DNA of 52,401 nucleotides from a virus (IMGVR_UViG_3300044990_000705:1-52401), one strand, 5' to 3'; shown: positions 1 to 52,355, counted from the stretch's first letter. Notes: generated by a model from the sequence alone, not told the origin. Numbers and translations: made by a program.

Positions 1-46
1 TTAAATCATGGGGCACCTCCACCACCGCCCGTGAACATAGTTGGTT
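1..46. repeat. Terminal direct repeat, left copy (circular overlap)
   Basis: 1-46 is identical to 52356-52401. Confidence 0.95.
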
Positions 47-196
47 ATAGATGATCTTAGTTATTATATTCTTACTATTATAAAAAAAAAAGAATAATAT
101 ATATAAAAAAAAATAATAATAAAGATAACAACCACCTAAAGACCACCACTACCACCCAACTATGTTCAAAACCGGAAAATGGGGTGCCCCATGATT
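4..196. other. Symmetric inverted-repeat element around an AT-rich core (putative replication origin or terminus)
   Basis: IR pairs 4-17/183-196 and 32-44/156-168, both centred on nt 100, flank A/T tracts at about 61-125. Confidence 0.55.
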
Positions 197-252
197 GAAT
201 GATTGAAATCATGATAACATGAAATCATGCAAACAATCAATTGTGGCCTGCC

Positions 253-275
253 CTATGTTCAAAAAATAAACATAG
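253..275. repeat. 23-bp palindromic motif, copy 1
   Basis: ctatgttcaaaaaataaacatag. Confidence 0.9.
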
Positions 276-563
276 CTGGCCTCCAAACCACTGGTCTCCA
301 GCTATCACCTATACCGACATCAAAAGTTATCGTAACTAAAGTTAAAATAAAAAATCTATATCCAAACCATCTGCAATGTCACAAATATGCTCGAAGAATC
401 CTAAAGTGTGTTGAATCGCTAATAAATCCAAAAAGTCACAAGTCCAATGACTAATCTCCCGGCCAGTAATGTCTGATAACATCAAAAAATGCAAAAGTGT
501 CATAACTGCCTCCATTCACAGCATCGCTGTGTGTCGGCATAAGTGATAACTGGAAATCACCAA

Positions 564-594
564 AGCCACTGACCCTCATGTGAGCACTCCAATT
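564..594. repeat. Inverted repeat arm pairing with 1201-1231
   Basis: 26/31 complementary to 1201-1231; inner extension 602-614 with 1183-1194. Confidence 0.8.
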
Positions 595-624
595 GAAGTG
601 CCCTGTTAGTGTTAATCGCTATCG

Positions 625-1101
625 CTAATCATCATCTCCATCTAAAACATCTGCCATCGTTACTGTGGGCTGCAAAATGGGCTGTGCCAATGTTGGCTGT
701 GGTGTCTGGGCTGTCTGAACTGGGCGCTTAACCTGTGGTGGTGCCATTACTGGATCTCCCACATGTTCCATTGCCCAGCTGATGAACTGATCTCTGCGAT
801 CTGGGGTCATCCTCAAAAAAACTGTCTCAACGCTAACTGTGGTGCGCTTACCTGCTGGAGCATACAAACTCTTCACGTTAACTCGCTGAATGCCAACTCC
901 TAATCTCAAAAAGTCATCCCTGTTGAGGCTCCTGCAGTGCGCTTGCCATGTCACCCTTGGACTCTGACCTCCACTGAGCAGGGTCATCATCTCCTGCATG
1001 TCATAACCTGTGAAATCAAACTCCACCTGTGCGGTCACTGTTGCAACCGTCACGCCATTAGCTATCTGGGAAATCCTGATCTGTTGAACCGGTGCTATCA
1101 T
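625..1101 (-). CDS. Hypothetical early protein (158 aa)
   Basis: ORF 625-1152; ATG at 1101 preceded by GGAGG; acidic C-terminal tail. Confidence 0.7.
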   Translation of the reverse strand: MIAPVQQIRISQIANGVTVATVTAQVEFDFTGYDMQEMMTLLSGGQSPRVTWQAHCRSLNRDDFLRLGVGIQRVNVKSLYAPAGKRTTVSVETVFLRMTPDRRDQFISWAMEHVGDPVMAPPQVKRPVQTAQTPQPTLAQPILQPTVTMADVLDGDDD

Positions 1102-1200
1102 GTGATACCTCCATTGTGTGAAAATGTACGTTAAAGTGGCTGTCCGAATCAACTAAACCCGGCCGCCCTATCTATAACCCTCTAACACCGCAGGTGTCGA

Positions 1201-1231
1201 AGTTGAAGTGCTCACATGAAGACCAGTGGCT
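1201..1231. repeat. Inverted repeat arm pairing with 564-594
   Basis: agttgaagtgctcacatgaagaccagtggct. Confidence 0.8.
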
Positions 1232-1509
1232 AACACTGGCAACCATCTAATGGACGAAGTCCATGCTGGCTCCCAATGACCCGCTTCGGGATTCCCGCCT
1301 GCCAACCATAAGCTGGTTGCTGGGAGTGCTGAATGTCAAAGATCTCGTTGCTGGCCACTGAGTGTGTCTAATGTATCCAATGGCCCTTATGCTGATTGAA
1401 AAATCTGATGCACGCAATCATAGTGTGGTTCGAAACATACTATGACCAGTTTAGTTTTTTAGACATAGTATGACTCGAAGCCTACTATGCCTTCCTTCCA
1501 CTTGCCACC

Positions 1510-1537
1510 ATCATACACTGTTGGTGGCTATTGTCAA
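1510..1537 (-). promoter_or_regulatory. Putative sigma70-type promoter (leftward)
   Basis: TTGACA-16 nt-TATGAT on the minus strand. Confidence 0.55.
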
Positions 1538-1647
1538 GGCCCTTGCCCTGACCACTTTGTTTGTCGCTTTCGTTAAATACATAATACATGATCCCAGTGG
1601 TTTGTCAACTTTCACATTCCCATGGCTGGAGTGATTTGCCATGTGAA

Positions 1648-1670
1648 CTATGTTCAAAAAATGAACATAG
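1648..1670. repeat. 23-bp palindromic motif, copy 2
   Basis: ctatgttcaaaaaatgaacatag (perfect 9-bp arms). Confidence 0.9.
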
Positions 1671-2425
1671 CCACAACCAATCTCATGAAAATCCAAAGGG
1701 GGATGATCCTCCCTTCGGTCGGACAATAGCATTGAGTAGGAAATATATAAGATTTTGAATACCCACAAATATGTGTAATTAACGTGGTGCACGCCTTCAT
1801 ACCACATTTGGCAACCCATACAATCCAACACACCATGCGCCCAGCGCATTGTGGTGGTCATTTGGCGGCCATTAATGGCCATTTCCAACAACAAATACCA
1901 CCACCCCGACCAACCCGCCAACAACACTAACCAATCGAACGTAGTGAGGAATGGCCAGATAGCGACTCTGGTAGCGGTAGCGGCACTATGCTGAAAGCGG
2001 CATTTGTGTTGGCCTTTTGTTAGGTGAGTTAACGTGGTGATGATGGTGGATGGGTGGTGGTTGGTTGGTGTGATTCATCATGGTGTGGTGGTTGCGTGTT
2101 GTGGTGGGCATTGTGGGGCGTTTGAACGGCATTTCCGCCCATAATCACATCCCGCCAACCACATTGCCCCGACCGTAGGGAGTGTATGTTAATCTAAATG
2201 TAGTGAGGAATTTGCCCCGAGCGTAGCGAGTTAGATAGGGATAGCGACAGCGATAGCGGCTAAGATCGCAATAGCCGCTATGTGGCGACCAAAGGGAGCA
2301 AAACAAACCAGATTTAAACTATGGTGATAACAACTGTATCGCGCAACCAGTAATTTTGCGCGATTAAGGTGACTTGGCGGAAAATTTCTGCGCAACCAAA
2401 GGTTGCAATTGTGGGAAATAATGGG

Positions 2426-2454
2426 TTGACATCTTGGTAAAAATGTTGTAATGT
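2426..2454 (+). promoter_or_regulatory. Putative sigma70-type promoter for the structural arm
   Basis: TTGACA-17 nt-TAATGT, 36 nt upstream of ORF 2491. Confidence 0.6.
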
Positions 2455-2490
2455 GGTTTTAAAATCTTCACACCAAAAAGGCAACTTTGC

Positions 2491-3039
2491 ATGGCTACAC
2501 TAACAAAAGAACAATCTGAGCGTTACACTATGCCATATCGCAGTGACCAACGATTCGGTCCTGTGCTCAGCAAGAAGAATTGGCAAGTAGGCCAACTATG
2601 GGACTTGCATCATGAAGTGATTCGGATGTTGTTGCTGGGAATGAAGCAAACTGACATCGCAGCAAAACTCAACATCACCGATTGCCAAGTCTCGAAGATC
2701 AAAAACTCCCAAGTCGTCCAAGATCGCTTATCGCTGATGCGTGCATCTCGTGATGTTCAAACTATTGACATCTCAAGGGATATTCTGGAAGTTGCACCTC
2801 GTGCCCTAAAACTATTGAAAAATATCGTTGAAAATGAGGGAGAAGGTCGTCAAGCAACTATTGGATTGCGTAGCAAGGTGGCTGAGAGCTTGCTCGACAG
2901 GGCGGGATTTGGGGCAGTGAAGAAATTGCAAAGTGAAAATGTGCATACCTTTTATGATGCTAATGAAATTGAGCGCATAAAGCAAAGGGCTATGCTCGCC
3001 AGCGGCGAGGTGGAAGAGGCCATAGTGGTGAATGGCTAA
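2491..3039 (+). CDS. HTH protein, probable terminase small subunit
   Basis: HTH-like GMKQTDIAAKLNITDCQVSKI plus AESLLDRAG motif typical of TerS-like proteins; first gene of the structural arm. Confidence 0.55.
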   Translation: MATLTKEQSERYTMPYRSDQRFGPVLSKKNWQVGQLWDLHHEVIRMLLLGMKQTDIAAKLNITDCQVSKIKNSQVVQDRLSLMRASRDVQTIDISRDILEVAPRALKLLKNIVENEGEGRQATIGLRSKVAESLLDRAGFGAVKKLQSENVHTFYDANEIERIKQRAMLASGEVEEAIVVNG

Positions 3040-3041
3040 CG

Positions 3042-3064
3042 CTATGTTCAAAAATTAAACAAAG
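3042..3064. repeat. 23-bp palindromic motif, copy 3
   Basis: ctatgttcaaaaattaaacaaag, between a stop codon and an RBS. Confidence 0.9.
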
Positions 3065-3078
3065 AGGACAATGCTGCT

Positions 3079-6000
3079 ATGTACATTCACAAACCGTGGA
3101 AGACATTCTTCGCGCCAACTGTCATAAAGTATGAAGCACCAACTGCTAATGACTACCAATATGACGTACCTACTGTCTGGCTGAACAAAACTACTGATAT
3201 TTGCTATCTGCTGGTGGACAACTCTATGGGTGCTGCCATCTGGGTTAGCCGAGAGAATAGCAATGGTGGCGACTCTGTGTGGGTGTTGTATGGCCAGAAT
3301 GCGTGTTATCTTGCTGGAAATGTGGGCATTGCTACTCCTGACCCAAGCCAAACTCTTACAATCGCTGGAACTATTGGTGGTGGTGAGCATGGAACAGAGT
3401 TCACTGTAGATATGAATGGTAGTGTGATTTGCGGAGACGTGAATAATCAGATCATATCTAATGCTGCGTCTTTCACTGGAACTGTGAATGCAGATGATGG
3501 CTTCTTGGTTGGAAATGACGCTACAAGTGGCAATGTGTTGAAAGCTGATGGAATTTCATTCAAATCTAGTGCTCTCACCAAAAGTGATGTGGGCCTTGAT
3601 AATGTTGACAATGTAAGTGATGCTAACAAAATCATATCTAACCTAACTGCAAGTGCTCTTGCTGCAAAGGCTGACTTGGTAAGTGGCAAAGTTCCAGCAA
3701 CTCAACTCCCTGCTAGTGCATTAATGGAACTTGGAAATGACTCTACCAATGCCTATTGGGGTGATAAGGGCAAAATTGCTTATGACCACTCCCTTGTTGT
3801 AGTTGGAAACCCTCATGCTGTTACAAAGAGTGATGTTGGTCTGGCTAATGTTGACAACACCAGCGACACCGCCAAACCAATCTCCAGTGCTGTCTCCCTA
3901 GCCTTGACTACCAAAGCTGATCTCGTGACTGGCAAAGTCCCTGCTGAGCAACTCCCTCCAATGTCTTATTCTGTTGTTGACTATGCAAATCGTGCTGCTT
4001 TCCCTGATCCGGGCGATAGCAATACCTACTATGTAGCGCTTGACACTATGTATGTCTACTTGTGGGGTGGAGATGGAGTTGGCTATGTGATGATAACTGG
4101 ATCGCTTGTGATAGCTGATAACGCTGTGACAATGGTTAAGATCCAAGATATCGACACAAACACTGTGATTGGGCGGATAGATAGTGGAATTGGAAACCCA
4201 AAGGCGCTGAGTGCCAGTGAACTGCGGGCTATTATTGGCACTGTTGGTATAGCAACTGACGCTATCTGGGATGCCGCTGGGGATCTTGTGGTTGGCTCTG
4301 GTGCTGATGCGGCAGTGCGGCTTGCAAAGGGTTCAAGTGGCCAAGTGCTGACTGCTGGTGCTACCACGTTATCTTGGCAAACACCAGCAACTGGTGGTGG
4401 AACTATAACTGATGTAACCGGCACTAGCCCTGTGGTCTCTAGTGGTGGTACAACTCCTGCCATATCTATGCCTGCTGCAACTGCAAGTGCTCCTGGCCAT
4501 GCAACTGCGGCGCAGATAACTAAACTTGATGGGATTGAGCCAGGTGCTAACGACTACACCCATCCAGGTGGTGATGGCTATCTGCATGTCCCCGCAACTG
4601 CTGGTGCTTCAAATGGCCAAGCTCTGCTTGTTGACACACCTGGAGCTGCTGCTGTGTGGGGAACTATCTCATCAAGTGGTGCTGTGAGTGTTGCTGACAC
4701 CTCATCTATCGATCTGACTCTGAGTGGAAGCCAAATATCTGGCGTAGTGCTGCCTGCTGGAGTGAATCATGACAGTTTGTCAAATTATAGTGCTAACAAA
4801 CATATAGATCATTCGGCTGTAAGTGTGATTGCCGGAACGGGGATGAGTGGAGGTGGAACACTAACTGAATCTCGCACACTGAATTGCACTGTAGTTGGCT
4901 ATTCTGCTGCAACTGCTAGAAGTGATATGATTGCTGCGAGTATTGCTGATGGTGACACTACCCACGCCCCTGATGGCAATTCTGTGTTTGACGCTCTTGC
5001 GCTTAAAGCTAACCTCGTCAGCCCAACTTTCACTGGCACAGTGTTGTGCGCTGCTATAACCGCAAGTGGCATTCTGACTGCTGCGACGATAAAAACTGGC
5101 TCGCTGAACACTACTTATGTCCCCTACTACGATTCCACTAATGGCCTGTCAAATAGCATAATCCGCAGTGTAGCTTCTGTAATTGGCATAGGCATATCTC
5201 CAACTAAAGCATTTTTGCATCTTGCGGCTGCAACTGCGGCTAATGCCAACTTGAAGTTTGAGCCTGCTGGTGTTGAACCAACTAGTGCTGATGTTGGTAG
5301 TTTGTGGTTCTATGTCGATGGTGGAGGGATTCCATATCTGAAGTTCAAAAAAACTAGCTCTGTCACAGTTGACCTACTTGCCATGTCTGGCACATCACAG
5401 TGGACAACAAGTGGAAATAATATCTGGTTTGGCACTGCTACTGTGGGAAGTGTTGGAGTTGGGATTTCTGCTCCTAGTGCACGGTTGCATGTGTATGGAA
5501 CTAATGCTTCTGGGCTTGCGAGCGGTCGGTTTGAGAATACATCAACTACTGGTTATTGCGAGGTTAGAGTAAAATCTGGAACAAATGATCTATATTTTGG
5601 TGCTTGTAGTCCTGGATACACAGGTACTGGATTTGAATCTGGATCGTGGATATGGAATACTGGGGCAGGAAAACTATCTTTTGGTACAAACAATACTGAG
5701 TGCTTTAACATAAATAGCAACAACGTGCTATATGTGTCAACTCCAACTAATCGTTACCACCAGATCTATAAAACACAATCTAGTGTGGATCTGACTGTGC
5801 CAACAACTAATACTTGCTTCTCTCCTGCGCTTACAGGTGGAACTGGCCAAGGAGTTGGCTGGATGCTGCCAATTGTCCCGCAGGTGTTTTGTGGAACTAT
5901 TTGCAATGTAGTGCCTACAATAAGTGGGTCGATGTGGTATGCTACAATTCACTCTAAGGTGCTAAACACTGGAGGAATTGGACTTCAGACAACTTCAGGT

Positions 6001-6813
6001 AGTTATAACTCTGCAATAACCAGTCACATTGGCTTGGTGCATGAAGTTGAGAACAAAGGTGGAAAAAGTGGTGATTGTAGTGCAGTTTTCCATCAAGTAT
6101 ATATGCACGGCCATCTTGCAAATGAAAGTAGCGAATCAACTTCAATTTATTATAGCCATGTCATAGGTGGTTTTCCTGGAGTTGAGGGAAATGATGGGCT
6201 TGGAGCATACTACACCTCTGTCTTTGAGGGCCATCAGTACTATATGAATGGTGGTAGTAACACTCGGGGGTGCAAAGGTTGGTGGCACTTGCTGTATATC
6301 AGCAATAATTTCGCTACTGGTGGATTATCTGCTGGAAATTGGAAATCCTATGATTATATAAGTGCAATACATGGTGTAGATGTTGCTACTTTTGGTGCAG
6401 CAGCTATGAGTGGATATGATATTATGTATGCCGATACTTTTTTAAGGGCTGCTGGAAAATGGCATACTGTCTTTGGTGGTGGAGTAGCTAGTTATGAAGA
6501 TGCAACTACTTTTCAGTTAACCTTAGATGTATGTGGAATAGATCTTTGTACTAATGTATTATATTCTTATGCAACTGTACCAGCCCTTAAAATATCAGAT
6601 GCCACATATATAGACTTAAATGGAAAATTTCCTTATACAGGTACCTGTAAAATTGGATCTGTTTCAAATGGAATTCATATGACTATAATGGGTACAAGTG
6701 GTACAGCAGTAACTGCATTTGGTATAAATAGTTCTGCCACATATCTACGAATAAATAATGTTTTGTATGGATTATCTGTTGATACTAATGGATTTGTAAA
6801 AGCTACTTCATAA
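3079..6813 (+). CDS. Long tail fibre protein
   Basis: 1244 aa, G/S/T/A-rich; duplicated TKSDVGLxNVDN..KADLVxGKVP repeats; VGIGxxxP..LHV fibre repeats. Confidence 0.8.
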   Translation: MYIHKPWKTFFAPTVIKYEAPTANDYQYDVPTVWLNKTTDICYLLVDNSMGAAIWVSRENSNGGDSVWVLYGQNACYLAGNVGIATPDPSQTLTIAGTIGGGEHGTEFTVDMNGSVICGDVNNQIISNAASFTGTVNADDGFLVGNDATSGNVLKADGISFKSSALTKSDVGLDNVDNVSDANKIISNLTASALAAKADLVSGKVPATQLPASALMELGNDSTNAYWGDKGKIAYDHSLVVVGNPHAVTKSDVGLANVDNTSDTAKPISSAVSLALTTKADLVTGKVPAEQLPPMSYSVVDYANRAAFPDPGDSNTYYVALDTMYVYLWGGDGVGYVMITGSLVIADNAVTMVKIQDIDTNTVIGRIDSGIGNPKALSASELRAIIGTVGIATDAIWDAAGDLVVGSGADAAVRLAKGSSGQVLTAGATTLSWQTPATGGGTITDVTGTSPVVSSGGTTPAISMPAATASAPGHATAAQITKLDGIEPGANDYTHPGGDGYLHVPATAGASNGQALLVDTPGAAAVWGTISSSGAVSVADTSSIDLTLSGSQISGVVLPAGVNHDSLSNYSANKHIDHSAVSVIAGTGMSGGGTLTESRTLNCTVVGYSAATARSDMIAASIADGDTTHAPDGNSVFDALALKANLVSPTFTGTVLCAAITASGILTAATIKTGSLNTTYVPYYDSTNGLSNSIIRSVASVIGIGISPTKAFLHLAAATAANANLKFEPAGVEPTSADVGSLWFYVDGGGIPYLKFKKTSSVTVDLLAMSGTSQWTTSGNNIWFGTATVGSVGVGISAPSARLHVYGTNASGLASGRFENTSTTGYCEVRVKSGTNDLYFGACSPGYTGTGFESGSWIWNTGAGKLSFGTNNTECFNINSNNVLYVSTPTNRYHQIYKTQSSVDLTVPTTNTCFSPALTGGTGQGVGWMLPIVPQVFCGTICNVVPTISGSMWYATIHSKVLNTGGIGLQTTSGSYNSAITSHIGLVHEVENKGGKSGDCSAVFHQVYMHGHLANESSESTSIYYSHVIGGFPGVEGNDGLGAYYTSVFEGHQYYMNGGSNTRGCKGWWHLLYISNNFATGGLSAGNWKSYDYISAIHGVDVATFGAAAMSGYDIMYADTFLRAAGKWHTVFGGGVASYEDATTFQLTLDVCGIDLCTNVLYSYATVPALKISDATYIDLNGKFPYTGTCKIGSVSNGIHMTIMGTSGTAVTAFGINSSATYLRINNVLYGLSVDTNGFVKATS

Positions 6814-7139: not shown

Positions 7140-7162
7140 CTATGTTCAAAAATTAAACAAAG
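7140..7162. repeat. 23-bp palindromic motif, copy 4
   Basis: ctatgttcaaaaattaaacaaag. Confidence 0.9.
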
Positions 7163-7567: not shown

Positions 7568-10500
7568 CAGACTTTATTAATGCCTCTGGCCCTTTGGCAG
7601 ATAGATACTTATATGATTCTGAAGATATTGGATTTACATATCTTGCTGTTGATACAGATGAAGTTTATGTTATAGTTGAATCTGATATTGTTCCTGATGG
7701 AATGTTAGGAGAATGGCAACTACGAAACTTCTTTCGAGCTGCTTTCATTGAGGTTGGTGCTCAAGGTGAACCAGGGCCTGAAGGGCCAGCTGGTGAAGAT
7801 GGAAATGTTATACAGATAAATGCTTCTGGATCTTACAACAATCGTTATCTCTACGACAGTGCCGATGTAGGCTTTAAGTATCTCGCTGTTGATACTGATA
7901 CTATTTATGAAATGTCAAGTGAAAGGGTTTGGGAAGAGAAAATAGTTTTTCGCACTGAATTTATCGAGCAGGGGCCTCAAGGTGAAATTGGTCCTCAAGG
8001 TGAAGTTGGCCCAAAGGGTGATAAGGGCGATACTGGGGATGCGGGATCTGGAATAAACTGGAAAGGTGCGTGGAGCAGTGCGGTTGAATATGTAGAATTT
8101 GACGCAGTTGAATTTATGGGAAGTTCATTTGTCGCTAATGGAACAAGCACAAATAGTATTCCATCATCGCTGGTTGATTGGTATATTTGGGTTTCAAAAG
8201 GTGACAAAGGTGACAAAGGTGACCAAGGCGAGCAGGGAATTCCAGGTGTAAGTGCTGGTCCTCCAACATCTTCTTGGTCTGCAATTCCAAATCATGTAAG
8301 ATATCCAAGCGAACTTTTGGTGTACTCAAGTCTTGGCCAAAAGTCAAACTCTTTTCATGTGCACTCTAATGTTAGCCTGAGCGCAGATGGATTTATGTCT
8401 GCTGGAGATAAAAGCAAACTTGATGGTATTGCGAGTGGGGCACAGGTAAATGTTGGAACTAATCTTAGTTTAGGATTTGTCACTGGAACTACAAGACAAA
8501 TATTATCATCTACTGGATCTGGAGTAACTATTCCAGAAGCTACTATAACTTCCAGTGGTATTACTGGTACTGCTGGTTTAATGTCATCAATAGATAAAAC
8601 AAAGCTTGCTGGAATTGATCCGCTGGCAAATAATTATGTTCATCCAAGCGGTGATGGTAATCTACATGTACCAGCCACTAGCACAAATAATGCTGGAAAA
8701 GTATTAACTGCTGGAAGTACTGCTGGATCTATTAGTTGGGTAGATGTTGTCAGTGGAGGTGATGGTGGAGATCTTAATCTTGAAACACTTAGAATATTTA
8801 ATGTAAAAGATTTTGGTGCGGTTGGGAATGGAGTTGTTAATGATAGGGATGCAATCCGTAGAGCTATTTATGCTGCCAGTATAGTTGGCGGTGGAACTAT
8901 TATTTTCCCTCCTGGCACATATAAAGTAGATGGCCCTATATCATGGATAGCTAGTTGGGATAGAATAAATGGTGTTGAGACTGAGCCTAATTTTTATAAG
9001 TGGGATGAATATCCACTAACTGCTTTAGATAATTTACATCTTGTTGGTATCGGAGCAGTAACGATAATTTGTGATATAGCTAATACAAAAATGCAAATTT
9101 TTTATCAGGTGTCTGTTCGAGAAGGATCTTCTTGGACTTTAAATAGAGCTACATGCGCTAAAAATCAATCTTTTACCAATATTATCTTTGATGGAAATAT
9201 AGATCATATTGATAATACTACTTTAACTGAAGATGCACTTGTTACATTATCTCCAGTAGATGGGTTAAGAATTGAAAAATGTACCTTTAAAAATGGTGGG
9301 GCTTATGGTCTTTCACTACAAAATAATTCAGATGTGGTAGGAAACGAGAAAAATAAGAATATAACTATAATAGATACTATATTTGAGAATAATGGAAGAT
9401 TTTTGCCTATTAATGGTTTAGATGGATTTGATGGATTAGACATAAAATGTGGAAAGAATATAACTCTTATAAATTGTACAGCACAAAATAATATGAATTC
9501 TGGATTTGATATTAGAGGGGAAAATGTTTCATATATAAATTGTTGTGCTTATAATAATGGTGGAAGTGGATTTGATTTAACTGCCAATATAACACCTGGT
9601 CTTCCATCATCATATAATATAATTGGAGGAGTCTCTTCTGGTAATGGTACTGGTGTTGGAGTAAATGGTAATTGTACAATAGCAGATTATAGTGCTGCAA
9701 CAAGAATGATTGCTTTCATTAGTGGTATGAGAATTTTAAATAGTGTGAGAACTTGGAGTACTACTGCTGTTCCTCCTCAATGGATAAATGGTGATGGAAT
9801 ACTTTTTTATGGTGATAGAGATGCAGATGTAAACAAAAATACTTTTGTTACTTTTGAAAATTGTGAAATAGTTGGAAATGAAAGATATGGAGTTTGGATG
9901 CATTCGAGTAGTGTATCGACCTATAACCTAAGAATTACCACTATTGGTTCAGCAGTTTTTAATAATTGTATTATTGCAAATAATGCAAGTACAGGTGTTT
10001 ATATTGAATTTGGAAATGTCACTATTCATGGCGGAAAGATTTTTGGTAATGGTGCTTATGGTATCTGGGAATCTGTATATGAAATAAAAAAGACTGTTTC
10101 AAAAACAATATATAGTGGAAATTTAGTAGTAGAAAATAATACTTATCAAGGTGAGGCAGATAAAAATATATTTCTTACCTCTGTTGCTGGTAGCTTGACA
10201 AATAGTGGTAGTATCACAGCAACAGTTGGAAAAGAAGTAAGAGATTATAATTACACAGCGCTTGATTATAATATCAAAACAATAGCATCAGCTGCAACTA
10301 TAACACTTCCTTATGGAGTTGATTTTTTCTGGATTACTGGAACTACTGCAATAAGTAACATAAATGGTGGCTATCATGGAAGAATAGTAACATTTGGATT
10401 TGCTGCTGATTGTCCTTTCGTGCATGGTGGAACTTATGGTAATACAAAGATATGGTTATTTGGCGCAGCAAATAAAACATTTCCGGCTAAAACTTATATA

Positions 10501-18123: not shown

Positions 18124-19593
18124 ATGGAACGATCTAATGAAATGGATGAGATACTCAGGCAATGTTACTTGAGTACAAAAGTGTGCTCAAAGGTACTATT
18201 TCCTGAACGCTTTCACAGGCCATTCTCAACTTTGCATGATGAGATTTTCAAAGTTCTTGATGATGATAGTATACGCAAAGTGGTGATCGCTGCACCTCGT
18301 GGATTTGGCAAGACATCAATTGACACTATCTCATATCCAGCAAAGAAGATTTTATTTAGGGAGAAAAAGTTTATAGTCCCAGTATCGTGTACGGCAACAA
18401 GTGCTGTTATGCAAGGTGAGAACTTGAAGCGGGAGTTGCTCTACAACCCTGACATCACTCGGTTATTTGGCCCTATGAAATCTGACTCTTTCAGCAAAGA
18501 GCAGTGGGTGACACAAAGTGGTACAATGATTATGCCTCGTGGTGCAGGCCAGCAAATACGTGGTCTTCTGTTCGAGCGCTATCGACCTGACTTGATAATA
18601 GCTGATGATCTTGAAGATGCTGAAGGGGTTAAGAATGAAGAGCAAAGATTGAAGCTCAAAGAGTGGTGGTTCTCAGATGTTTGCAATAGTGTAGATCGTG
18701 GATCGAAGAACTGGAAGATCATAATGGTCGGAACTGTGCTTCATGAGGATTCATTGCTGGTGAACTTGCTTGAAGATCCTGAGTGGCATTCAGTTCACCT
18801 ATCAATCTGTGATGATGATCTTAAGAGCAATTGGCCAGATTTTATAACTGATGATGAAGTTAAAGCACTTTATGAGAGCCACAAAAATCGCACTCCAAGT
18901 CAAGTTGATCTATTTTATCGTGAGTATCGTAACATACCTATCAGTACAGAAGATGCAACATTTAAGCCAGATTATTTTAAGTATTATGATGAAGGTGAGT
19001 TTGCAAGTAGTCAGAAATCAAAGGATTGCATAACGGTAGTTATAGTCGATCCTGCTAAAACAGTGAAACTTCACAGCGCTGATAGTGCAATTATCGGTAT
19101 AAGCTTTGATCGGGAATCTAGGGCGATATACATAAGAGATGTGGATGCAGGCAAGTTTTATCCTGAGGAATTGTATGACAAAGCTATTGATATGGTGGAG
19201 AGGATTAGGGCGAGAATCATAGCGCCGGAGGTAACTTCACTTAACGAATTCATAACTCAGCCATTTCTCAACCAGCTAAAACTAAGGGGATGTTGGGCAC
19301 AGTTTGTTGAACTCAAAGCAAGGATGAAGAAGGAAGATCGTATCAGTGCGCTCGTGCCATACTATCGCCAAGGCTTTGTCTTCCATAATAAAAGTTGTTG
19401 CCAAAAACTTGAGTCGCAATTACTTAGCTATCCACGATCAAGACTGTGGGACGTGATGGATGCAGAGGCTTATATCATTGAGCTGATGGAACTTGAAGGC
19501 CAGTACTTCGACCCACCTGATATACCAGAAGATGATGAGAGTTATTTTGATCTTGAAAATGATGGAATAATAAAAGACTGGAGATTAGTTTAA
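18124..19593 (+). CDS. terL: Terminase large subunit
   Basis: Walker A APRGFGKT, QIRG..RPDLIIADDLED Walker B, VGT motif, C-terminal DPA..DSA nuclease. Confidence 0.92.
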   Translation: MERSNEMDEILRQCYLSTKVCSKVLFPERFHRPFSTLHDEIFKVLDDDSIRKVVIAAPRGFGKTSIDTISYPAKKILFREKKFIVPVSCTATSAVMQGENLKRELLYNPDITRLFGPMKSDSFSKEQWVTQSGTMIMPRGAGQQIRGLLFERYRPDLIIADDLEDAEGVKNEEQRLKLKEWWFSDVCNSVDRGSKNWKIIMVGTVLHEDSLLVNLLEDPEWHSVHLSICDDDLKSNWPDFITDDEVKALYESHKNRTPSQVDLFYREYRNIPISTEDATFKPDYFKYYDEGEFASSQKSKDCITVVIVDPAKTVKLHSADSAIIGISFDRESRAIYIRDVDAGKFYPEELYDKAIDMVERIRARIIAPEVTSLNEFITQPFLNQLKLRGCWAQFVELKARMKKEDRISALVPYYRQGFVFHNKSCCQKLESQLLSYPRSRLWDVMDAEAYIIELMELEGQYFDPPDIPEDDESYFDLENDGIIKDWRLV

Positions 19594-30332: not shown

Positions 30333-30344
30333 TGGAGATTGATT

Positions 30345-33300
30345 ATGGCACTTGGAGCAAAGATTCAATTAGATGGTAGCAAGAATTCTCTTGGACCTAA
30401 AATCCAACTTGATGAGGTTGGAAGTGGAGCTCCAAGTTTCATAGATCAAGTTGCTAATGCAGGTTTAGGTGCAGTGGATGCAATTGGGAGTTTGGCAGGC
30501 CAAGCAGTTTCATTCCCAGCAAGCTTGGCGTATGAAGCAGCAGGGCATTTAACTGGGCAAGGGAAAGATGTTGCAAAGCAGTGGGGACAGATACCAGGTT
30601 ATTACACACAGCCAGGGATGATTACTGGTGCGGTTAGATCACTTGCGGGGTTGCCAAGTATTCCACAAGAACAGACTATGGCGGCGAAGTATAGTGAGCC
30701 AATAGCTAAGGCATTTGAGACACTTATTCCATCACAGCAGATTGAAGAAGGTCTTGGTAGGGCAAAGGAACTTGGGGCACCAGAGAAGGTGACTGATGCA
30801 CTTGCTTTTGGTGCTTCGAAGTTCATTGAGTTGATGGCATTTGGAGGTTATCATAAGATAGCAACAGGGGCTATAGGAAAGATCAAAGGGAAGTTAAAGG
30901 AGTATCAGAAAGCACCTACCCCACAAGCACAAGCACAGGCCCAAGGTGATTTGCTTGGAGAGTTGGAAGGAGTTCTTGGAAAACTCAATGAGAAAGGTGT
31001 GGACATTACGGAGTTGAAAGCAACAATTCCAACAATAGCAGACACTCCCATAGCAAGTGAGATGGCAGCCAGAAATGCCCAGACAGCACAAAGGACTAAT
31101 GCTGAGAGCCAGCAGTTTATGCAATCAAGATCAGCACTACAGCAGGCATTAGAGGCTAATGTTCCAAAACCAGAGCCACCAGCCATCATAGAGCCAAAGC
31201 AAACTGGGTTGACCCCGCAAGAGACATTGGAAGCAGCTAAAGTTAATAAGAACCTGACAGGTGATCCACAGATAGTTTCACCTGATGAGTTCAAGACTTT
31301 AGTAGATCAGCAAGCCAAAGTTCCAACACAAGAGAATGTCAGCGCTAAGCTTGAAGCTATGAGAGCAGAAGCAAAAGCGAGGATAGCAGCTGAGCAGAAC
31401 AGGCCGGCAGCAGGTGCAGAAATACCAGTTAGATTGCAACAAGAGGCAGAGAGGACAAATCAGATAGCAAGGGAAGCAGTTAGCAGGCAGAGATCACTTC
31501 AGCAGATGTTGCAGAAAGGAGTGCCGAAAGAAGAGGTTAAGGCTTATCAGCCATCGCCAGCGAAGGTTGAGCCGATAGTTGAGACTGTAAAACAGGCTGA
31601 GGTAAAAGCTGAGCCGCAAAAACCAGTGGTTACTGAAGAACTTTCACCAGCTGTTAGTGAGCAATTGCTAGTTGAGCCAGCTAAAGTTGAGCCACTTAAA
31701 CCAGAACCTGTTGTTGAGAGCAAAGTGGTGAATGAGCCAACCTCTGTTCAAAAAATGAACATAGTTGAAGAGCCAAAACTAGCAAAGAAACCACGTGAAG
31801 TTGTTTTAATTGAAAGAGAAAAACCAGTTTACCATAAATCATCTAATCTTGAATCACTTGAAAATGGATTTCAGAAAAGAGATCTTGGAATTTCATTCTC
31901 CAAAACGCCGGAAACAACATATAGTTCACCAAGAAAACAAGAACCAATTGGGACTATTGGCCAAGTTGAGGCAACATTAAAAGGAAAAGGGCTTAACTAT
32001 CTGAGAAAATCTCATAAGGATTTGATTGAGAATCTTTATGAAGAAGCAACAAAGCAAGATGGACCTTATGATCCATATGTTATTAGCAAACTTCGTGAAA
32101 TGGGAGTTGACTTTGTAGAAAATTTTAATGGCTATGGCAAATCAAGAGAGGGAGAAGTTCATGTTTTAAATCCAGATGCTGTTAAGATAAATAAAACTAC
32201 AAAATTATCTGACTCACTTGATCCAAAAGAAAGAGCAAGGGTTAGTAGGTCTGGACTTTCACAAGATAGTCTTATAACAAAGTTTGAAACAAACAAAGAA
32301 GCAAAGCAGTCTTATGAACTCAACAAGAGACAATTTGCTACAGTAGATGAAGCTAAGACATTCTTTGATACCATACCACAAGAGATTAGGAATGAGTTCT
32401 CACCAGAGATTTTAAAGGTTGGAAAGAAGTATAGGATCGGCACAAAGATCTTGACTGAGATGCCAGAAGAGGAGATAGTAGCTAAGATCAAAGACACAGT
32501 TAAAGAGCTTGAAGATATGGAGCAAGGTAGAGATGTTCCCATGCCGAAGATGGCTGAGCAAATGACAGGTGATCAGGTTTACAAGGCCGTGACAGATATG
32601 ATCCCAGACATCCAAGCAGCACTACAGAATGGCACTAATGTGGAAGTGGTGCACCAGAAACTGGCAAACCTTGGAGATCATGCAGCTACATCACTGGAGT
32701 TTGAGTTGCTTGATAAGATTGAAAGTATGTTGCCGCAGTTGTGGAAGAAGAAAATGGAGATAGATAGTGTGCTTGAAAAGCAATTCTCAGATGCACATAA
32801 AGCAGACATGAAGAGTGCCAAGACAACTGCGGGTGGGAAGGAGATAAAGGTAGATGCAAGTGGATATAATGGAGTTAGTGTTAAGGATATTAAGAACACA
32901 GCAACAGCCATCAACAAGATTGTGGGAAATATAGGAGCAGTTGGTACTGAGGTAGGTGGTGGGAAGCAGAGTAGGTTGAGCTTGTTGAATCAGGCTGAGA
33001 TAGATTCCATTAGAAGGGTTAAAGAAGCAGCACAGAAAGCAGGGAAAGAAGTAGGAGAGTTCTTACTTGAGCTTGGTATGACAAGAGATAACGCACAGAA
33101 GATAGTGGAGACCATTGGTGAGATGGGAGAGGAGAAGGTAGGTAGGAAGGAATTGAGATCTACACCAGAGCAAGTTCAGAGAGTTACTGATGGACTTGAA
33201 AGTGAGATGGATAAGATCAGGAATCCCATTAAGAAGTATTATCAAGAGATGTATGATAAGAGGCAGATGGTTGATACTTATCGACCAGGAGATGGGAATT

Positions 33301-35225
33301 ATCAGAGACAGTTGCCAGGCACTCCACAGACACCACCAGAGTTAAGTGGCAAAGGAATGGGACATACAGCACTATCGCCGCACAACGTTCTTAATGTTTT
33401 CAAAAGTGGTGATAACCCAGTGACTGATGTTATTAAGTCTCATAATGCTTTCACACGGAATGTTAGCAATGGAAAGAAGTGGATAAAGGATTTGCTGAAA
33501 GATGTGCCAGAGATGTCAGCAGAGGCGCAGAAGAAGTTTGAAAATATCTATGATCAGTATAGTGATAGATACAAGCTGAGGGCACAGATAGGCAGGTCAG
33601 TTGCTTCACTTGAGAAGAGGATAGCGAAGAAGAGTGGAAGTCAGAAGGCAGCACTTGAGAAAGAGTTAAAGATAGAGCAAGCAAAGTTTGGTGAAGCTAA
33701 TAAGATGGCAGCTGATATGGCTGCGGATTTTGACACTTTGATAAACTCACCAGAAAGCCCAGCCCTCACTGAGCCAACAGTTAGAATTATGCTTGCTGCA
33801 GATGGCACACTGCCAAGCCATATTAAGTTGAGTCCACTTGAAGCAGATGTAGCAGCGAAGATTAGAACATACTTTGATTCCACAGCAGAGGATATGAAAG
33901 CACTTGGAATGCCAGTGAAAGAGGGTTATGTGCACAGAGTGTGGAAGCCACTTGTTAATAAAGATGTTTTGGAGAGCTCGTTCTTCCAGAGATCTATGAG
34001 AACTCCTTCGATGTTGCGGCAGATGAGCCAGTTGCCAGATGGTAGAACTTGGTTTCCGGATGCTAAAGCCACGTTGGAAAGTTATGTGCCAATTATAGAG
34101 CGAGAGCTTGCTTATAATCCATTCTTGGATAGGTGGAGTAGCTTCATAGATAAGACTGAGAGTCCAAAATTAAGGGCTTATATGCAACAGTGGGTGAATG
34201 ATAACCTTTATCGTAAGCCTGATAGTTTCATGGGCAATGTGAATGCAGCGGCTACAGCGTTTGAGTTTGCTCGTTTGATAGGCCTGTCATTGCCAGTTGC
34301 ATTTAAGCATTTGATGAAAGTGTGGGGCACGACAAGCCAGAACTCGCTTGATGTTAATGCACTTGCGCTTGCAGATACAATGAAAGCACTTGGACAGTTT
34401 ACGAAAGAGAAGTTTGGAGGGATTCCGAAAGATAAAGAGCTTGAAGTGTTTCGATCGTATGTGACTACCAGAGATATTGTTAAATCACTTGATGAGTCAC
34501 CTATAAGTGGTATGCTGGATATGGTTAAGGGTATTCTTGGATCACCTACAGCAACGATAGAAGCTTTTGATAATGGAATCTCAGTGTTCTCAGCGATTCG
34601 TAAAGGGGCGAAGAAAGGAATAGATAGCCAGACCACTGAGAGGGCGATGATTAGAACTATTCTTGATGTCAACTTCAGGTCTGGTTGGGATCAGCCACTT
34701 TGGCTCAAAACAGATGCAGCCAGGTGGATGTTGATGTTCCAGAGCACGCCATATAAGTCAGCAGAATTGAAGTATCAGATGATAAAGCGAGCACTTAATA
34801 ATGAAAGAGATGCTTTTGGTACACACTATGGACAACAGTTGTTGAAATATATGCTAACTATTGGAGCAGTAGAGGCTATTGCCAGGGCTAATGATACATC
34901 AGTTTTAGAGCAAGTTATGCACATGCCATTCTTCAGCCATTGGTTAGCAGGGTCAAAGGAGCAGCCAGGTGTGAAGTTGCACATACCCAAAACTGCGACG
35001 AGTCCACTTGTGGGGTTGGCTTATCATATGAGTTCAAATAGGAAGGGCGCACCAGCAGGATTCAGGGAGCAGTTTGGACTTGATAGAAATTTCCTGCCAA
35101 CAAGGAAAAGTAGTCCGAGTTTGAATAGATATATGAATGCAGCAGATGGGAATAAGAGGAAGTTCAACACTATAACGCAGATGATTCTGGGATTGCAGCC
35201 ACTTGAAGGTGAGAGTGGAAGGTGA
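30345..35225 (+). CDS. Large internal virion / polyvalent ejection protein with an ART-like domain
   Basis: About 1626 aa, helical; last structural gene; VYHKS..GISFS..EVHVLNPDAVK segment. Confidence 0.7.
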   Translation: MALGAKIQLDGSKNSLGPKIQLDEVGSGAPSFIDQVANAGLGAVDAIGSLAGQAVSFPASLAYEAAGHLTGQGKDVAKQWGQIPGYYTQPGMITGAVRSLAGLPSIPQEQTMAAKYSEPIAKAFETLIPSQQIEEGLGRAKELGAPEKVTDALAFGASKFIELMAFGGYHKIATGAIGKIKGKLKEYQKAPTPQAQAQAQGDLLGELEGVLGKLNEKGVDITELKATIPTIADTPIASEMAARNAQTAQRTNAESQQFMQSRSALQQALEANVPKPEPPAIIEPKQTGLTPQETLEAAKVNKNLTGDPQIVSPDEFKTLVDQQAKVPTQENVSAKLEAMRAEAKARIAAEQNRPAAGAEIPVRLQQEAERTNQIAREAVSRQRSLQQMLQKGVPKEEVKAYQPSPAKVEPIVETVKQAEVKAEPQKPVVTEELSPAVSEQLLVEPAKVEPLKPEPVVESKVVNEPTSVQKMNIVEEPKLAKKPREVVLIEREKPVYHKSSNLESLENGFQKRDLGISFSKTPETTYSSPRKQEPIGTIGQVEATLKGKGLNYLRKSHKDLIENLYEEATKQDGPYDPYVISKLREMGVDFVENFNGYGKSREGEVHVLNPDAVKINKTTKLSDSLDPKERARVSRSGLSQDSLITKFETNKEAKQSYELNKRQFATVDEAKTFFDTIPQEIRNEFSPEILKVGKKYRIGTKILTEMPEEEIVAKIKDTVKELEDMEQGRDVPMPKMAEQMTGDQVYKAVTDMIPDIQAALQNGTNVEVVHQKLANLGDHAATSLEFELLDKIESMLPQLWKKKMEIDSVLEKQFSDAHKADMKSAKTTAGGKEIKVDASGYNGVSVKDIKNTATAINKIVGNIGAVGTEVGGGKQSRLSLLNQAEIDSIRRVKEAAQKAGKEVGEFLLELGMTRDNAQKIVETIGEMGEEKVGRKELRSTPEQVQRVTDGLESEMDKIRNPIKKYYQEMYDKRQMVDTYRPGDGNYQRQLPGTPQTPPELSGKGMGHTALSPHNVLNVFKSGDNPVTDVIKSHNAFTRNVSNGKKWIKDLLKDVPEMSAEAQKKFENIYDQYSDRYKLRAQIGRSVASLEKRIAKKSGSQKAALEKELKIEQAKFGEANKMAADMAADFDTLINSPESPALTEPTVRIMLAADGTLPSHIKLSPLEADVAAKIRTYFDSTAEDMKALGMPVKEGYVHRVWKPLVNKDVLESSFFQRSMRTPSMLRQMSQLPDGRTWFPDAKATLESYVPIIERELAYNPFLDRWSSFIDKTESPKLRAYMQQWVNDNLYRKPDSFMGNVNAAATAFEFARLIGLSLPVAFKHLMKVWGTTSQNSLDVNALALADTMKALGQFTKEKFGGIPKDKELEVFRSYVTTRDIVKSLDESPISGMLDMVKGILGSPTATIEAFDNGISVFSAIRKGAKKGIDSQTTERAMIRTILDVNFRSGWDQPLWLKTDAARWMLMFQSTPYKSAELKYQMIKRALNNERDAFGTHYGQQLLKYMLTIGAVEAIARANDTSVLEQVMHMPFFSHWLAGSKEQPGVKLHIPKTATSPLVGLAYHMSSNRKGAPAGFREQFGLDRNFLPTRKSSPSLNRYMNAADGNKRKFNTITQMILGLQPLEGESGR
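31742..31764. repeat. 23-bp palindromic motif, copy 11 (intragenic)
   Basis: ctctgttcaaaaaatgaacatag within the large CDS. Confidence 0.88.
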
Positions 35226-35287: not shown

Positions 35288-35485
35288 TTATTCAAAATCA
35301 AAACTTTTGTCAAGATCTTTTAATATAAAACTATCAACCTTGAGGTCAAAATTTCCAGCTTTTGTGAATAGAGTTATTGTATGGTCTTCTGTTTCCGCGT
35401 ATATTCCATTATCTTTATAGCCACAGATAGCACTACTACGAAAATAATAAAGCTTGTTTTCTTTATCTATAAACTCAAGGATCAT
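35288..35485 (-). CDS. Hypothetical protein
   Basis: 65 aa; ATGA overlap; GGAGG RBS. Confidence 0.6.
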   Translation of the reverse strand: MILEFIDKENKLYYFRSSAICGYKDNGIYAETEDHTITLFTKAGNFDLKVDSFILKDLDKSFDFE

Positions 35486-36423
35486 TTATCTACCTCCCAC
35501 TTTATGTTTAGTTTTTCACTTGCCCATTTTAATGCTTCCAAATGTTCCCTATTTTCTGCTCCAATATCTTTTAAAATCTGTCGTGCTTCTTTTTTATTCA
35601 TCCCTTTTGCTAATAGATCATAAGCCATAACTCTAAATTTACCTAATCTTGTACCATCTTCCCTGAAAGTTTCTGGTGGCTTTTGTTTTATTTCCTCTGC
35701 CACAAAACCAGTCTCAATTATTCCACGCTCAGTTATTCTAAATTTAAAAGGAGGAGACTTTGCCGCAAGATTCAATTTGGCTTGTGTTATTATTCTCCTG
35801 TCACTTCCTTCTCCATCCTCATCAAGAAGTAAAACCGACCTGGCAAGATCCGAGACAGCAGCACTACCAGCGATAGAATCAAGTGAAAGTGATGATTCCA
35901 TATTTTGTTTCTTGTTCACATGCGCCAGTAATAAAATTCCAGTTTTATAAACTGATGCCGTTTCTTGTAGTTGTTCAAAATATGTAGCAGCTCTATTACG
36001 TTCCTGTAACTCAATTAATCGTGCGATTACAGTTAGAGAATCTAAGATAATTAAATCCGGTTTTACATCTTTTATTAACAGTTGTATTTTGTACACATCT
36101 GTCGGACTACCAGTGTCAATCATTCCACTTATTGGTTCCCGATTTCCAACAAGTTTTAGCTTCTTCCAGTTTGGCAAATCCCATTCATAGCAACGTTTCC
36201 TTATCAATGATCCACTGCGCTCAGCATCAAAGATTAGAATTGTCTTTCCTTCTCCAGCGAGTTTATCTGCGAGCCATAAAGAGAACCCACTTTTTCCAAC
36301 TCCGCCACGAGAAGCGAGTATAGTGATGTAGTTTTTTGGTACTAACGGTTCCCACAGCCACTCAATATCACCAATCTTTTCCATAAGATCCTCAATGTCA
36401 AACACTTCATAGTTTTTACTCAT
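35482..36423 (-). CDS. RecA-fold ATPase/helicase (AAA_25/RepA-like)
   Basis: EWLWEPLVP, ASRGGVGKS, LIILDSL, LLAHVNK, GSAA..ARSV; start may be 36423 or 36441. Confidence 0.8.
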   Translation of the reverse strand: MSKNYEVFDIEDLMEKIGDIEWLWEPLVPKNYITILASRGGVGKSGFSLWLADKLAGEGKTILIFDAERSGSLIRKRCYEWDLPNWKKLKLVGNREPISGMIDTGSPTDVYKIQLLIKDVKPDLIILDSLTVIARLIELQERNRAATYFEQLQETASVYKTGILLLAHVNKKQNMESSLSLDSIAGSAAVSDLARSVLLLDEDGEGSDRRIITQAKLNLAAKSPPFKFRITERGIIETGFVAEEIKQKPPETFREDGTRLGKFRVMAYDLLAKGMNKKEARQILKDIGAENREHLEALKWASEKLNIKWEVDK

Positions 36424-36494
36424 AGTAATTGATTCCCACATTTGGTTGTTGGTGTATTATTTCCCGTATTTTTTTATTAATACGTTTTATTATT

Positions 36495-36523
36495 AAAATA
36501 CACAAAAAACAATACATTGTCAA
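36495..36523 (-). promoter_or_regulatory. Putative sigma70-type promoter
   Basis: TTGACA-17 nt-TATTTT upstream of the AAA_25 gene. Confidence 0.55.
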
Positions 36524-36549
36524 CAAACAAATTCCAACATTTAACATGC

Positions 36550-36572
36550 CTATGTTCATTTTTTAAACAGAG
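36550..36572. repeat. 23-bp palindromic motif, copy 13
   Basis: ctatgttcattttttaaacagag, abutting the stop codon of ORF 36573. Confidence 0.88.
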
Positions 36573-36761
36573 TTATTTTCCATTCTCCCTAATAACTCCT
36601 ATCGCCCTTTCCGCCATAGCCTCTGCCCAGCCAATATGATAGCCAGTTTCAAAGCCAAAAGCAACTTGCATTTCCACATCCAGTTGCCTACGCTGGAATT
36701 CTTTGCTTGCTTCCCAATAATACTCTCTGCCCCGTTGTAGTTCAATCACCCTATCGTCCAT
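36573..36761 (-). CDS. Hypothetical protein
   Basis: ATG 36761 with GAGG RBS. Confidence 0.55.
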   Translation of the reverse strand: MDDRVIELQRGREYYWEASKEFQRRQLDVEMQVAFGFETGYHIGWAEAMAERAIGVIRENGK

Positions 36762-36762
36762 A

Positions 36763-37050
36763 TCACCTCTCCGCATTTTCAAGGAATCTTCGCACGAGTT
36801 GCCTGGTGATGCACTTTGAGAAGTCAAACTTGGTGAGTTGATTCACAATAGCTATCACCGATTGCTCATTCATGTCGTCAAGTTTCATCCTATCTTCAGT
36901 CTGTTTTAGCCATTGCAAGTGAGTTTGCTCGTCCCAAGGAAGTGGGGAAACTATCATCTCTTCATACCACAAACAGCGATCTTCCTGTCCCTCTCCGTGT
37001 TGCTTAGTGCAGAACAAACTGTGCATTATTTCCGCAATTCTTTCGCTCAT
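36763..37050 (-). CDS. Hypothetical protein
   Basis: 95 aa; HxxxCxxxH..C possible metal site. Confidence 0.6.
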   Translation of the reverse strand: MSERIAEIMHSLFCTKQHGEGQEDRCLWYEEMIVSPLPWDEQTHLQWLKQTEDRMKLDDMNEQSVIAIVNQLTKFDFSKCITRQLVRRFLENAER

Positions 37051-37270
37051 CTTTTTGCTTCCTTTTTACACTAGACATTATTAGTTTAAGTAATTCAAAA
37101 CAACCATCACAAGGTTCATGTGAAACATGACCACAGATCACTTTGCCCTGGCCGATTTCGTAGTATTCATAGTTATATAAAAAATCTTTTCCATTGCTAC
37201 ATAGTTGTTTTCTTGTAGCAGTTGTGTGCAAGATTAAAATTCCATTAACTTTTGTTTCCCAAGTTATCAT
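37004..37270 (-). CDS. Hypothetical protein
   Basis: 88 aa, coupled to the upstream gene. Confidence 0.55.
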   Translation of the reverse strand: MITWETKVNGILILHTTATRKQLCSNGKDFLYNYEYYEIGQGKVICGHVSHEPCDGCFELLKLIMSSVKRKQKDERKNCGNNAQFVLH

Positions 37271-42057: not shown

Positions 42058-42080
42058 CTTTGTTTAAAAATTGAACATAG
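42058..42080. repeat. 23-bp palindromic motif, copy 14
   Basis: ctttgtttaaaaattgaacatag. Confidence 0.9.
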
Positions 42081-47509: not shown

Positions 47510-47532
47510 CTATGTTTAATTTTTGAACATAG
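47510..47532. repeat. 23-bp palindromic motif, copy 17
   Basis: ctatgtttaatttttgaacatag. Confidence 0.9.
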
Positions 47533-52262: not shown

Positions 52263-52355
52263 CAATTAATTTCGTAATAAAATGCAATAAAATCACATGG
52301 TTATAAAATGAATTTTAATTGATCCCAATTACAAAATCCCAAATGATTTGATGTT

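Follow-up and report, generated by a model that had tools for sequence, protein, structure and literature searches.

A conserved mirror-symmetric element, melt-prone at its core, where the early genes of lake phages begin: a candidate replication origin

The stretch of DNA analysed here, referred to as the window, is the complete IMG/VR virus contig IMGVR_UViG_3300044990_000705 (52,401 nt). Its 3' 46 nt (52356–52401) are identical to positions 1–46, so that the circular unit is 52,355 nt, and this terminal direct repeat covers most of the left arm of the element described below. Structural genes occupy the plus strand from 2491 to 35225, including those for tail fibres, the large terminase (18124–19593), the portal and the major head protein, and the early and replication genes run on the minus strand from 52182 down to 35482. 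The early block encodes a family A polymerase (PolA) with an N-terminal UDG-like domain, a DUF3987 protein and an AAA_25/DnaB-like protein (35482–36441), along with a ligase, an exonuclease, a Sak4-like protein and a ParB-methyltransferase fusion. A short block of minus-strand genes (1927 to 342) points toward the element, which lies in non-coding DNA bounded by the small ORF that ends at 342 and by the first early gene, at 52182. This small ORF (342–515, minus, 57 aa) has a 47-aa counterpart to the right of the element at 276–419 of G001 (L012), the two sharing the pattern MTLLHF...ICDIAD; G001 is a close, collinear relative of 51,505 nt with about 70–90% nucleotide identity to the window.

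[quoted passage not shown] The neighbouring 74-, 175- and 206-aa proteins gave no match in Pfam, PHROGs or NCBIfam, and the 206-aa protein, the sole neighbour compared with a protein atlas, had no match there; ten homologues of the 175-aa protein were found. No initiator candidate was identified among the proteins encoded beside the element, and Rfam and tRNA scans found nothing. About 15 kb of tail-fibre and other genes separate the small-terminase-like gene from the large terminase gene in the window, compared with about 1.2 kb in the relative G004, and the two genes are adjacent in the Desulfofustis phage.

The initial annotation had described three inverted-repeat pairs that share one centre of symmetry at nt 100, and each of its coordinates is confirmed on the circle. 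The inner pair, 32–44 (TGAACATAGTTGG) and 156–168 (CCAACTATGTTCA), is a perfect match over 13 bp, and the second pair, 4–17 (AATCATGGGGCACC) and 183–196 (GGTGCCCCATGATT), is perfect over 14 bp, its left arm being composed of an AATCATG unit and a G/C block. The third and outermost pair consists of ATGATTT (52343–52349) and AAATCAT (206–212), 7 bp long, where 52343–52349 corresponds to positions −12 to −6 on the circle because the first and last 46 nt of the record are identical. The spacers between the inner and second pairs are 14 nt on each side (18–31 and 169–182) and, as proposed, unrelated in sequence, with 4 of 14 mirrored positions complementary when read by eye. The description of the core (61–125) as nearly pure A/T with A tracts likewise holds, 61 of its 65 positions being A or T with A10 at 82–91 and A9 at 105–113; over the whole interval between the inner arms (45–155) the count is 89 of 111. 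A gapped alignment of the left side with the reverse complement of the right extends the symmetry to about −41 and 240, and the element is taken to occupy about −41 to 240 on the circle around nt 100; the mirror-symmetric stretch itself is about 225 bases. Close to the centre, within 40 nt, mirrored positions are seldom complementary. Apart from its terminal duplicate the element is present in a single copy in the genome.

Several other repeats are superimposed on this layout. The 18-mer ATTATATTCTTACTATTA lies in the core at 63–80 (plus strand) and is also found beside the homopolymer of the corresponding element in Desulfofustis phage OP947158. At 144–156 (plus strand), CACCACTACCACC is the direct, not mirrored, partner of CACCTCCACCACC at 14–26, and a TACCACC(C)-like box (149–156) recurs 50–70 nt from the core in the arms of L047, L045 and L048 and at the contig end of G003; it is present in both arms in L047 and on one side only in the window. 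To the right of the arms lies a repeat cluster (190–239) with tandem copies of ATGATTGA at 191–198 and 199–206, tandem 16-mers at 204–219 and 220–235, and AAATCATG at 206–213 and 222–229. There are seven copies of AAATCATG in the genome, three of which fall within the element (3–10, 206–213 and 222–229), all three as direct repeats, and the third inverted pair is a member of this family, whose copies are mostly direct rather than inverted. Since the AATCATG unit occurs in the window three times in direct and once in inverted orientation, an arrangement of oppositely disposed iterons is clearer in the relatives than in the window itself. In Logan contigs of runs X11 and X16, nt 15 is followed by an additional C (window 15–17), which lengthens the second pair to 15 bp and moves its centre by half a base; the 14/14 spacing is therefore not fixed exactly.

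The arrangement is far beyond chance. Each centre of the circular genome was scored by the sum of perfect complementary runs of at least 7 nt lying 11–125 nt from it, and in this inverted-repeat search on the re-circularised genome, which the initial annotation had suggested, centre 100 scores 34 and ranks top of 104,710 centres. The runner-up scores 16 and corresponds to a 16-bp repeat spanning a promoter pair 220 nt from centre 100. An ungapped count of complementary positions at 41–125 nt from the centre again places centre 100 at rank 1 (47 of 85; genome mean 21.7, sd 4.2), and the single-stranded DNA of 1–215 has a predicted folding energy of −35.3 kcal/mol compared with −12.4 ± 2.6 for 200 shuffles. 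The least stable 80-nt duplex of the genome starts at position 46 (−75.5 kcal/mol; mean −104.6, sd 6.1), and G004 and G007, the other two complete genomes examined, likewise have their stability minimum for 80-nt duplexes in the core. GC skew, another suggested check, gives no independent support for an origin, as the cumulative minimum (first 2 kb) coincides with the switch of coding strand, and minus-strand genes to the left and right of the element do not differ in the predicted direction.

In G001 the inner pair has changed on both sides (TTGG/CCAA to TTAGG/CCTAA), with one compensated indel, and pairing is kept; the arms match as inverted copies of each other for about 100 nt on either side in the window and for about 190 nt in G001. 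More distant relatives were found through a polymerase search and a profile of the 182-aa helix-turn-helix protein, and eight loci with at least 1.4 kb upstream of the small-terminase-like gene were assessed. In seven of the eight (L044, L045, L046, L047, L048, L050 and L054) the top co-centred repeat is an element of the same kind, and in the eighth, L049, the contig ends within the element. The arms of the relatives are long, imperfect and inverted, ordered from short repeated units on the outside through G/C blocks to the core, with TGTAC/TGTAT-type units in both arms in several lineages, and the cores are A/T- or pyrimidine-rich with a T8–T11 run. The arms are mutual inverted copies in eight of eight elements, and at 41–125 nt from the centre 36–59 of 85 positions are complementary in the relatives' elements against about 21 expected. 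The core of the G007 element is a near-palindromic TA repeat; the other seven of the eight cores are non-palindromic and carry homopolymer runs on one strand. Arm sequences thus vary by lineage under a constant layout, and the map position is likewise constant, just upstream of the early promoter-like site and 1–2.3 kb upstream of the small-terminase-like gene, even in phages whose PolA is only about 40% identical to that of the window. Absence of the symmetric spacing from relatives had been named as evidence against the element; the co-centred layout is kept in them, and the exact spacing is not. Taken together, these results describe a module that is conserved, single-copy and mirror-symmetric, whose core is prone to melting and which stands where the early region begins.

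Desulfofustis phage OP947158 carries an equivalent element at a matching map position (GenBank 43100–43400), in which TAGTGGGATAATAT-type units occur three times in tandem together with G9 and A17 runs, and in which window 63–80 recurs as an identical 18-mer. The idea that the window core is inverted relative to other lineages was dropped, as the 18-mer and the GGTTATAG block have the same orientation and only the letter of the homopolymer differs. Searches by nucleotide sequence added little: blastn of 1–3000 against GenBank phages found nothing, a scan of IMG/VR with the right-arm pattern returned G001 and five chance matches in coding DNA, and the 18 IMG/VR matches to the 18-mer included no relative. 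One of the sites examined, L068 (around 8800–9000 of a G+C-rich IMG/VR contig), has the 18-mer beside four tandem CGCTGGCGGTTCG units; it has an iteron-plus-A/T layout but neither shared proteins nor symmetry, and was set aside as a different, unrelated element. A metagenome scan with the profile of the 175-aa protein confirmed no relative, and among the 62 matches of a metagenome scan with the left-arm pattern none had the right arm or palindrome copies. A high mirrored count at position 18956 of G004 was rejected as scattered matches within coding DNA.

The inner arms are connected to a second feature of the genome, a 23-bp palindrome of 9+5+9 design with 19 copies at no more than one mismatch where 0.01 would be expected (19–20 copies by all counts). 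As the initial annotation had noted, each inner arm contains one 9-nt arm of this palindrome, facing outward. Copies are found on both coding strands (for example 3042–3064, 7140–7162, 42058–42080 and 47510–47532), where they occupy the space from a stop codon to the ribosome-binding site that follows; read by eye, 18 of 20 are intergenic, about half abut a TAA stop, and 13 of 20 are followed at 6–16 nt by an ATG, the ribosome-binding site extending into the palindrome's end. Eleven copies have C/A at position 8 and its partner, six have T/G, three have C/G and none has T/A, and hence most copies (17 of 20) pair a TTCA-type with a TTTA-type half and none pairs two TTTA-type halves. The copy at 31742–31764 falls inside a 1628-aa ORF (30339–35225), with a G001 counterpart at 30433, which is unusual for an otherwise intergenic motif. 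The full copy nearest to the element is at 253–275, and in runs X16 and X17 contigs agree with the window as far as this copy extends and continue from 276 with unrelated sequence. Because the contigs of two runs diverge directly after it, palindrome copies may also serve as module or recombination boundaries between strains.

The palindrome is common to G001, G002, G004, G006 and G007, at polymerase identities to the window down to about 41%. L047 has a palindrome of the same design and the same intercistronic position with another sequence (CTTTGGCAA, five A/T, TTGCCAAAG; copies at 1698–1720, 4981–5003 and 6646–6668), and the inner arms of its element (region 500–640), TTGCCATAGTTG and CAACTATGGCAA, are outward-facing half-sites of L047's own palindrome. 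The half-site shared by arms and palindrome is therefore TGAACATAG in the window and G001 and TTGCCA(A/T)AG in L047. No half-site was found within 150 nt of the element centre in G004, G006 and G007, which have the window-type palindrome, and the arms seen beside the T26 run of G008, which has its own palindrome type, are not half-sites of that type. The proposal that the protein reading the palindrome also acts at the element is thus supported by arm–palindrome covariation in two lineages (window/G001 and L047), where the innermost arm units suggest that the palindrome's reader probably binds the element too; with arms lacking half-sites in G004, G006, G007 and the part of the G008 element that its contig contains, this link holds in some lineages only, on a small comparison of two covarying and four non-covarying lineages.

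The concern that the junction might be an assembly artefact is removed by the relatives, in which the element lies within contigs and is internal in the circular assemblies G004 and G007. The terminal overlaps of these two assemblies (127 nt in G004; 123 nt, inside PolA, in G007) fall at unrelated places, and both are therefore circular assemblies. Furthermore, the right end of the window alone carries the third pair and the entire left arm in one piece. The runs found (n=22) are represented by contigs rather than raw reads, and parts of the stretch left uncovered in runs X16–X18 carry no meaning. Logan contigs of 3,936 nt (X11) and 586 nt (X16), from different studies, cross window position 1, extending at least 228 and 362 nt beyond it in the two runs. 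Nevertheless, contigs end within the element more often than expected: four of the 11 reaching the region do so (the window, G001, G003 and G008), whereas random breaks would place about 1% per contig there. The window ends at nt 1 and 46. G001 stops at the equivalent of nt 66, restarts at the equivalent of nt 120 and has no terminal repeat, so that it lacks exactly the homopolymer-rich part of the core (equivalent to 67–119). G003, assigned by arm resemblance only, starts at the arm next to the core, and G008 ends about 100 nt past its T26 run, its element being cut by the contig end. Loss of coverage at extreme A/T content and homopolymers fits the ends of G001 and G003, which lack just the homopolymer part, and real molecule ends fit the odd 46-nt overlap of the window.

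These contig ends bear directly on an unlikely alternative, in which the element serves for packaging or as a terminus (a cos or pac site or a short terminal repeat): the terminase would recognise the repeated arms and cut within or next to the A/T core, leaving the ends of virion DNA here, and the short repeat of 46 nt that terminates the record could be a genuine direct one. Where such a repeat is shorter than the word used by the assembler, a contig of just this form would result, and the 46 nt of the window are unlike the overlaps of G004 and G007, which at 123–127 nt presumably resemble assembler word lengths. The excess of contig ends and the position of the element upstream of the gene for the small-terminase-like protein point the same way, and cos and pac sites are non-coding, lie on the terminase side of the map, contain repeated protein-binding units and bendable A/T DNA, and may coincide with contig ends. 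However, G004 and G007 are circles broken elsewhere, and the gap in G001 coincides with the homopolymer-rich part, as dropout at low-complexity A/T sequence would give, in a contig that has no terminal repeat. The Logan contigs across position 1 also argue against a terminus, though 31-nt words would give the same result with a 46-nt terminal repeat. To our knowledge, cos and pac sites are found within the small-terminase gene or immediately next to it and lack mirror symmetry over 200–400 bp; the element is 1–2.3 kb away from that gene, and the one to two variable genes that separate them are on the opposite strand. In addition, beyond the Desulfofustis phage the nearest named relatives of the large terminase are Mu-like ones, at about 26% identity, which package by the headful mechanism.

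A transcription-linked function, to which we likewise assign a low probability, could take the form of an upstream bent or A-tract module with a factor-binding array controlling the adjacent early promoter, of an insulator or terminator separating the small operon read leftward (1927 to 342) from the early operon, or of an extended hairpin in the leftward RNA at which transcripts are processed or stabilised. The early promoter-like site of the window is 193 nt from the centre and that of G004, a near-consensus TTGACA-17-TATGAT on the minus strand that faces the early genes, 127 nt, so that the element abuts such a site in both genomes. In the window a 16-bp inverted repeat (52202–52217/52254–52269) contains two overlapping, facing sigma-70-like promoters with shared −10 regions: the minus-strand site (52262–52234, TTGACA-17-TACCAT, preceded by TG) faces the early genes from 52182 and the other faces the element. 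The leftward genes, including the small ORF conserved in G001, point into the element, the minus-strand RNA of 1–215 has a predicted folding energy of −82.8 kcal/mol compared with −42.5 ± 4.1 for shuffles, and the palindrome whose half-sites form the inner arms is intercistronic and abuts stop codons. Against this, 1–250 holds no intrinsic terminator (a short G+C-rich hairpin followed by a T run) on either strand, RNA folds are about equal on the two strands in the eight elements, and arms of 100–190 nt per side together with the least stable duplex of the genome are not features that a promoter or terminator requires. Wobble-compatible mismatches modestly favour the minus strand (65 against 40), which may reflect base composition. 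Inverted repeats that flank a short segment, and the near-palindromic TA core of G007, might instead suggest a mobile or recombination site, such as a miniature inverted-repeat element, a telomere-resolution site, an invertible segment or an attachment site. This is very improbable, given the non-palindromic core in seven of the eight elements, contigs of four runs in which neither joints nor inversions appear, and 59 scanned ORFs with no match to integrase, repressor, transposase, invertase or protelomerase families. The miniature inverted-repeat mobile element was rejected for its one copy and its fixed map position in distant relatives with PolA about 40% identical. A telomere-resolution site acted on by a protelomerase has a perfect dyad through its centre and is accompanied by the protelomerase gene, and was rejected on the scarcity of complementary mirrored positions near the centre, the one-stranded homopolymer runs in seven of the eight cores and the lack of a protelomerase match among the 59 ORFs.

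The reading of the element as an origin of bidirectional replication for a self-loading MCM-like helicase is the best of the explanations considered, and we regard it as about as likely as not. It is suggested by the unique arrangement, the least stable duplex at its centre, the conserved kind and map position, and the MCM-like helicase that the phage is predicted to encode. The broader proposal of the initial annotation, an origin or a packaging/terminus site, is partly supported and agrees with everything that could be computed. A physical terminus would also explain the cluster of contig ends, which counts against the origin, as does the position of the helicase gene about 14 kb from the element, a separation also seen in G004 and G007.

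The candidate origin-binding, self-loading helicase is the DUF3987 protein of 397 aa (37270–38463, minus), which matches the Pfam family at 1.4e-15; its candidacy draws in part on PMC4889955, and helicase activity has been reported for one DUF3987 protein (PMC11724360). A model built from six relatives has a mean pLDDT of 60.6, with a poorly modelled ATPase core (<50 at residues 86–211) and a confident C-terminal helix-helix-strand-strand domain that is winged-helix-like. All of the roughly 40 matches listed by Foldseek are MCM or replisome entries, the best being MCM subunits, and are weak (best E 4e-4, TM 0.37) and, with the ATPase core poorly modelled, are only a lead; a sequence search of the PDB with the protein found nothing. 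On this structural model the protein is a candidate MCM-like, SF6 DUF3987 helicase with a C-terminal winged helix. The window and G001 (35747–36940) proteins are 99.7% identical in surrounding DNA of about 89% identity. Near-identical helicases with the same AATCATG units in these two phages amount to a single data point on covariation of helicase and arms.

If the element is an origin, its two oppositely oriented arms, with their G/C blocks and short units, could serve as helicase sites, each arm being bound by the winged helix of the DUF3987 helicase with one ring per arm. The A/T core of about 80–110 bp, the easiest part of the genome to melt, would then open, and two rings would load head to head on the opened core and then travel in opposite directions. 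Transcription running leftward from two strong promoter-like sites, at 1608 and 1537, would enter the element and may help opening. These sites lie within 1510–1608 on the minus strand (TTGACA-16-TATTAT and TTGACA-16-TATGAT, 11 of 12 each), inside the listed ORF 1511–1927, which also contains the palindrome copy at 1648–1670; this ORF may not be a gene, because an ORF search of G001 gave no long open frame at the corresponding position.

It is conceivable, though somewhat doubtful, that one factor reads both the palindrome at about 20 gene boundaries and the innermost origin arms, coupling gene expression to the start of replication, and that this shared recognition code co-evolves with the phage lineage. 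The nearest published parallel found for the palindrome, as distinct from the core element, is in cluster K mycobacteriophages, for which PMC3203893 describes start-associated sequences (SAS), a conserved repeat just upstream of many start codons throughout the genome, and ESAS, an imperfect inverted repeat with a spacer that is conserved among related phages; neither has an assigned function there. The phage here differs in having a single 9+5+9 palindrome that fills the gap from stop codon to ribosome-binding site on both strands and is represented by outward half-sites at the element. A full-text literature search with the half-site and 'phage' found nothing relevant.

We know of replication origins mapped in only a handful of model tailed phages, and in uncultured lineages they would need to be predicted. 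If the origin reading is correct, origins could be recognised from sequence across a group of lake phages by a signature that combines the lowest duplex stability, inverted arms sharing one centre and a location beside the early promoter, and the element would represent a natural symmetric substrate for the self-loading of MCM-like DUF3987 helicases. The covariation of palindrome and arms would likewise point to a DNA- or RNA-reading factor.

Mirror-symmetric initiator sites flanking an A/T-rich element are known from archaeal oriC and from the origins of polyoma-, papilloma- and herpesviruses, and the logic of such inverted-site origins is that two helicase rings are loaded in opposite orientation. 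The likeness of the phage element to these origins is one of layout only, as the initiators and repeat sequences are unrelated. A closer comparison is offered by the origins of staphylococcal pathogenicity islands (SaPIs), served by self-loading helicases of the SF3, SF6 MCM-like and primase-Rep types. These origins span about 300 bp, with penta- or hexanucleotide iterons in opposite orientation around a central AT-rich region (102 bp in SaPI5) that are bound by the C-terminal winged helix of Rep, presumably one hexamer per side, and one SaPI Rep is SF6 MCM-like (bioRxiv 10.64898/2026.10.17.759575). The SaPI origin adjoins the rep gene directly downstream and uses arrays of one hexamer, whereas the phage arms are composites of repeat units, G/C blocks and, in two lineages, palindrome half-sites; SaPIs are satellites and the carrier of the element is a virulent-looking tailed phage of lake bacteria. 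With the DUF3987 gene about 14 kb away, we liken the element to the SaPI origins and do not class it as a member. Like them, the window element has an AT-rich centre of about 100 bp and measures about 300 bp in total. Short units opposed across an AT-rich region that is assumed to melt are clearer in the relatives than in the window, and the counterpart of the helicase with a C-terminal winged helix would in the phage be the DUF3987 protein.
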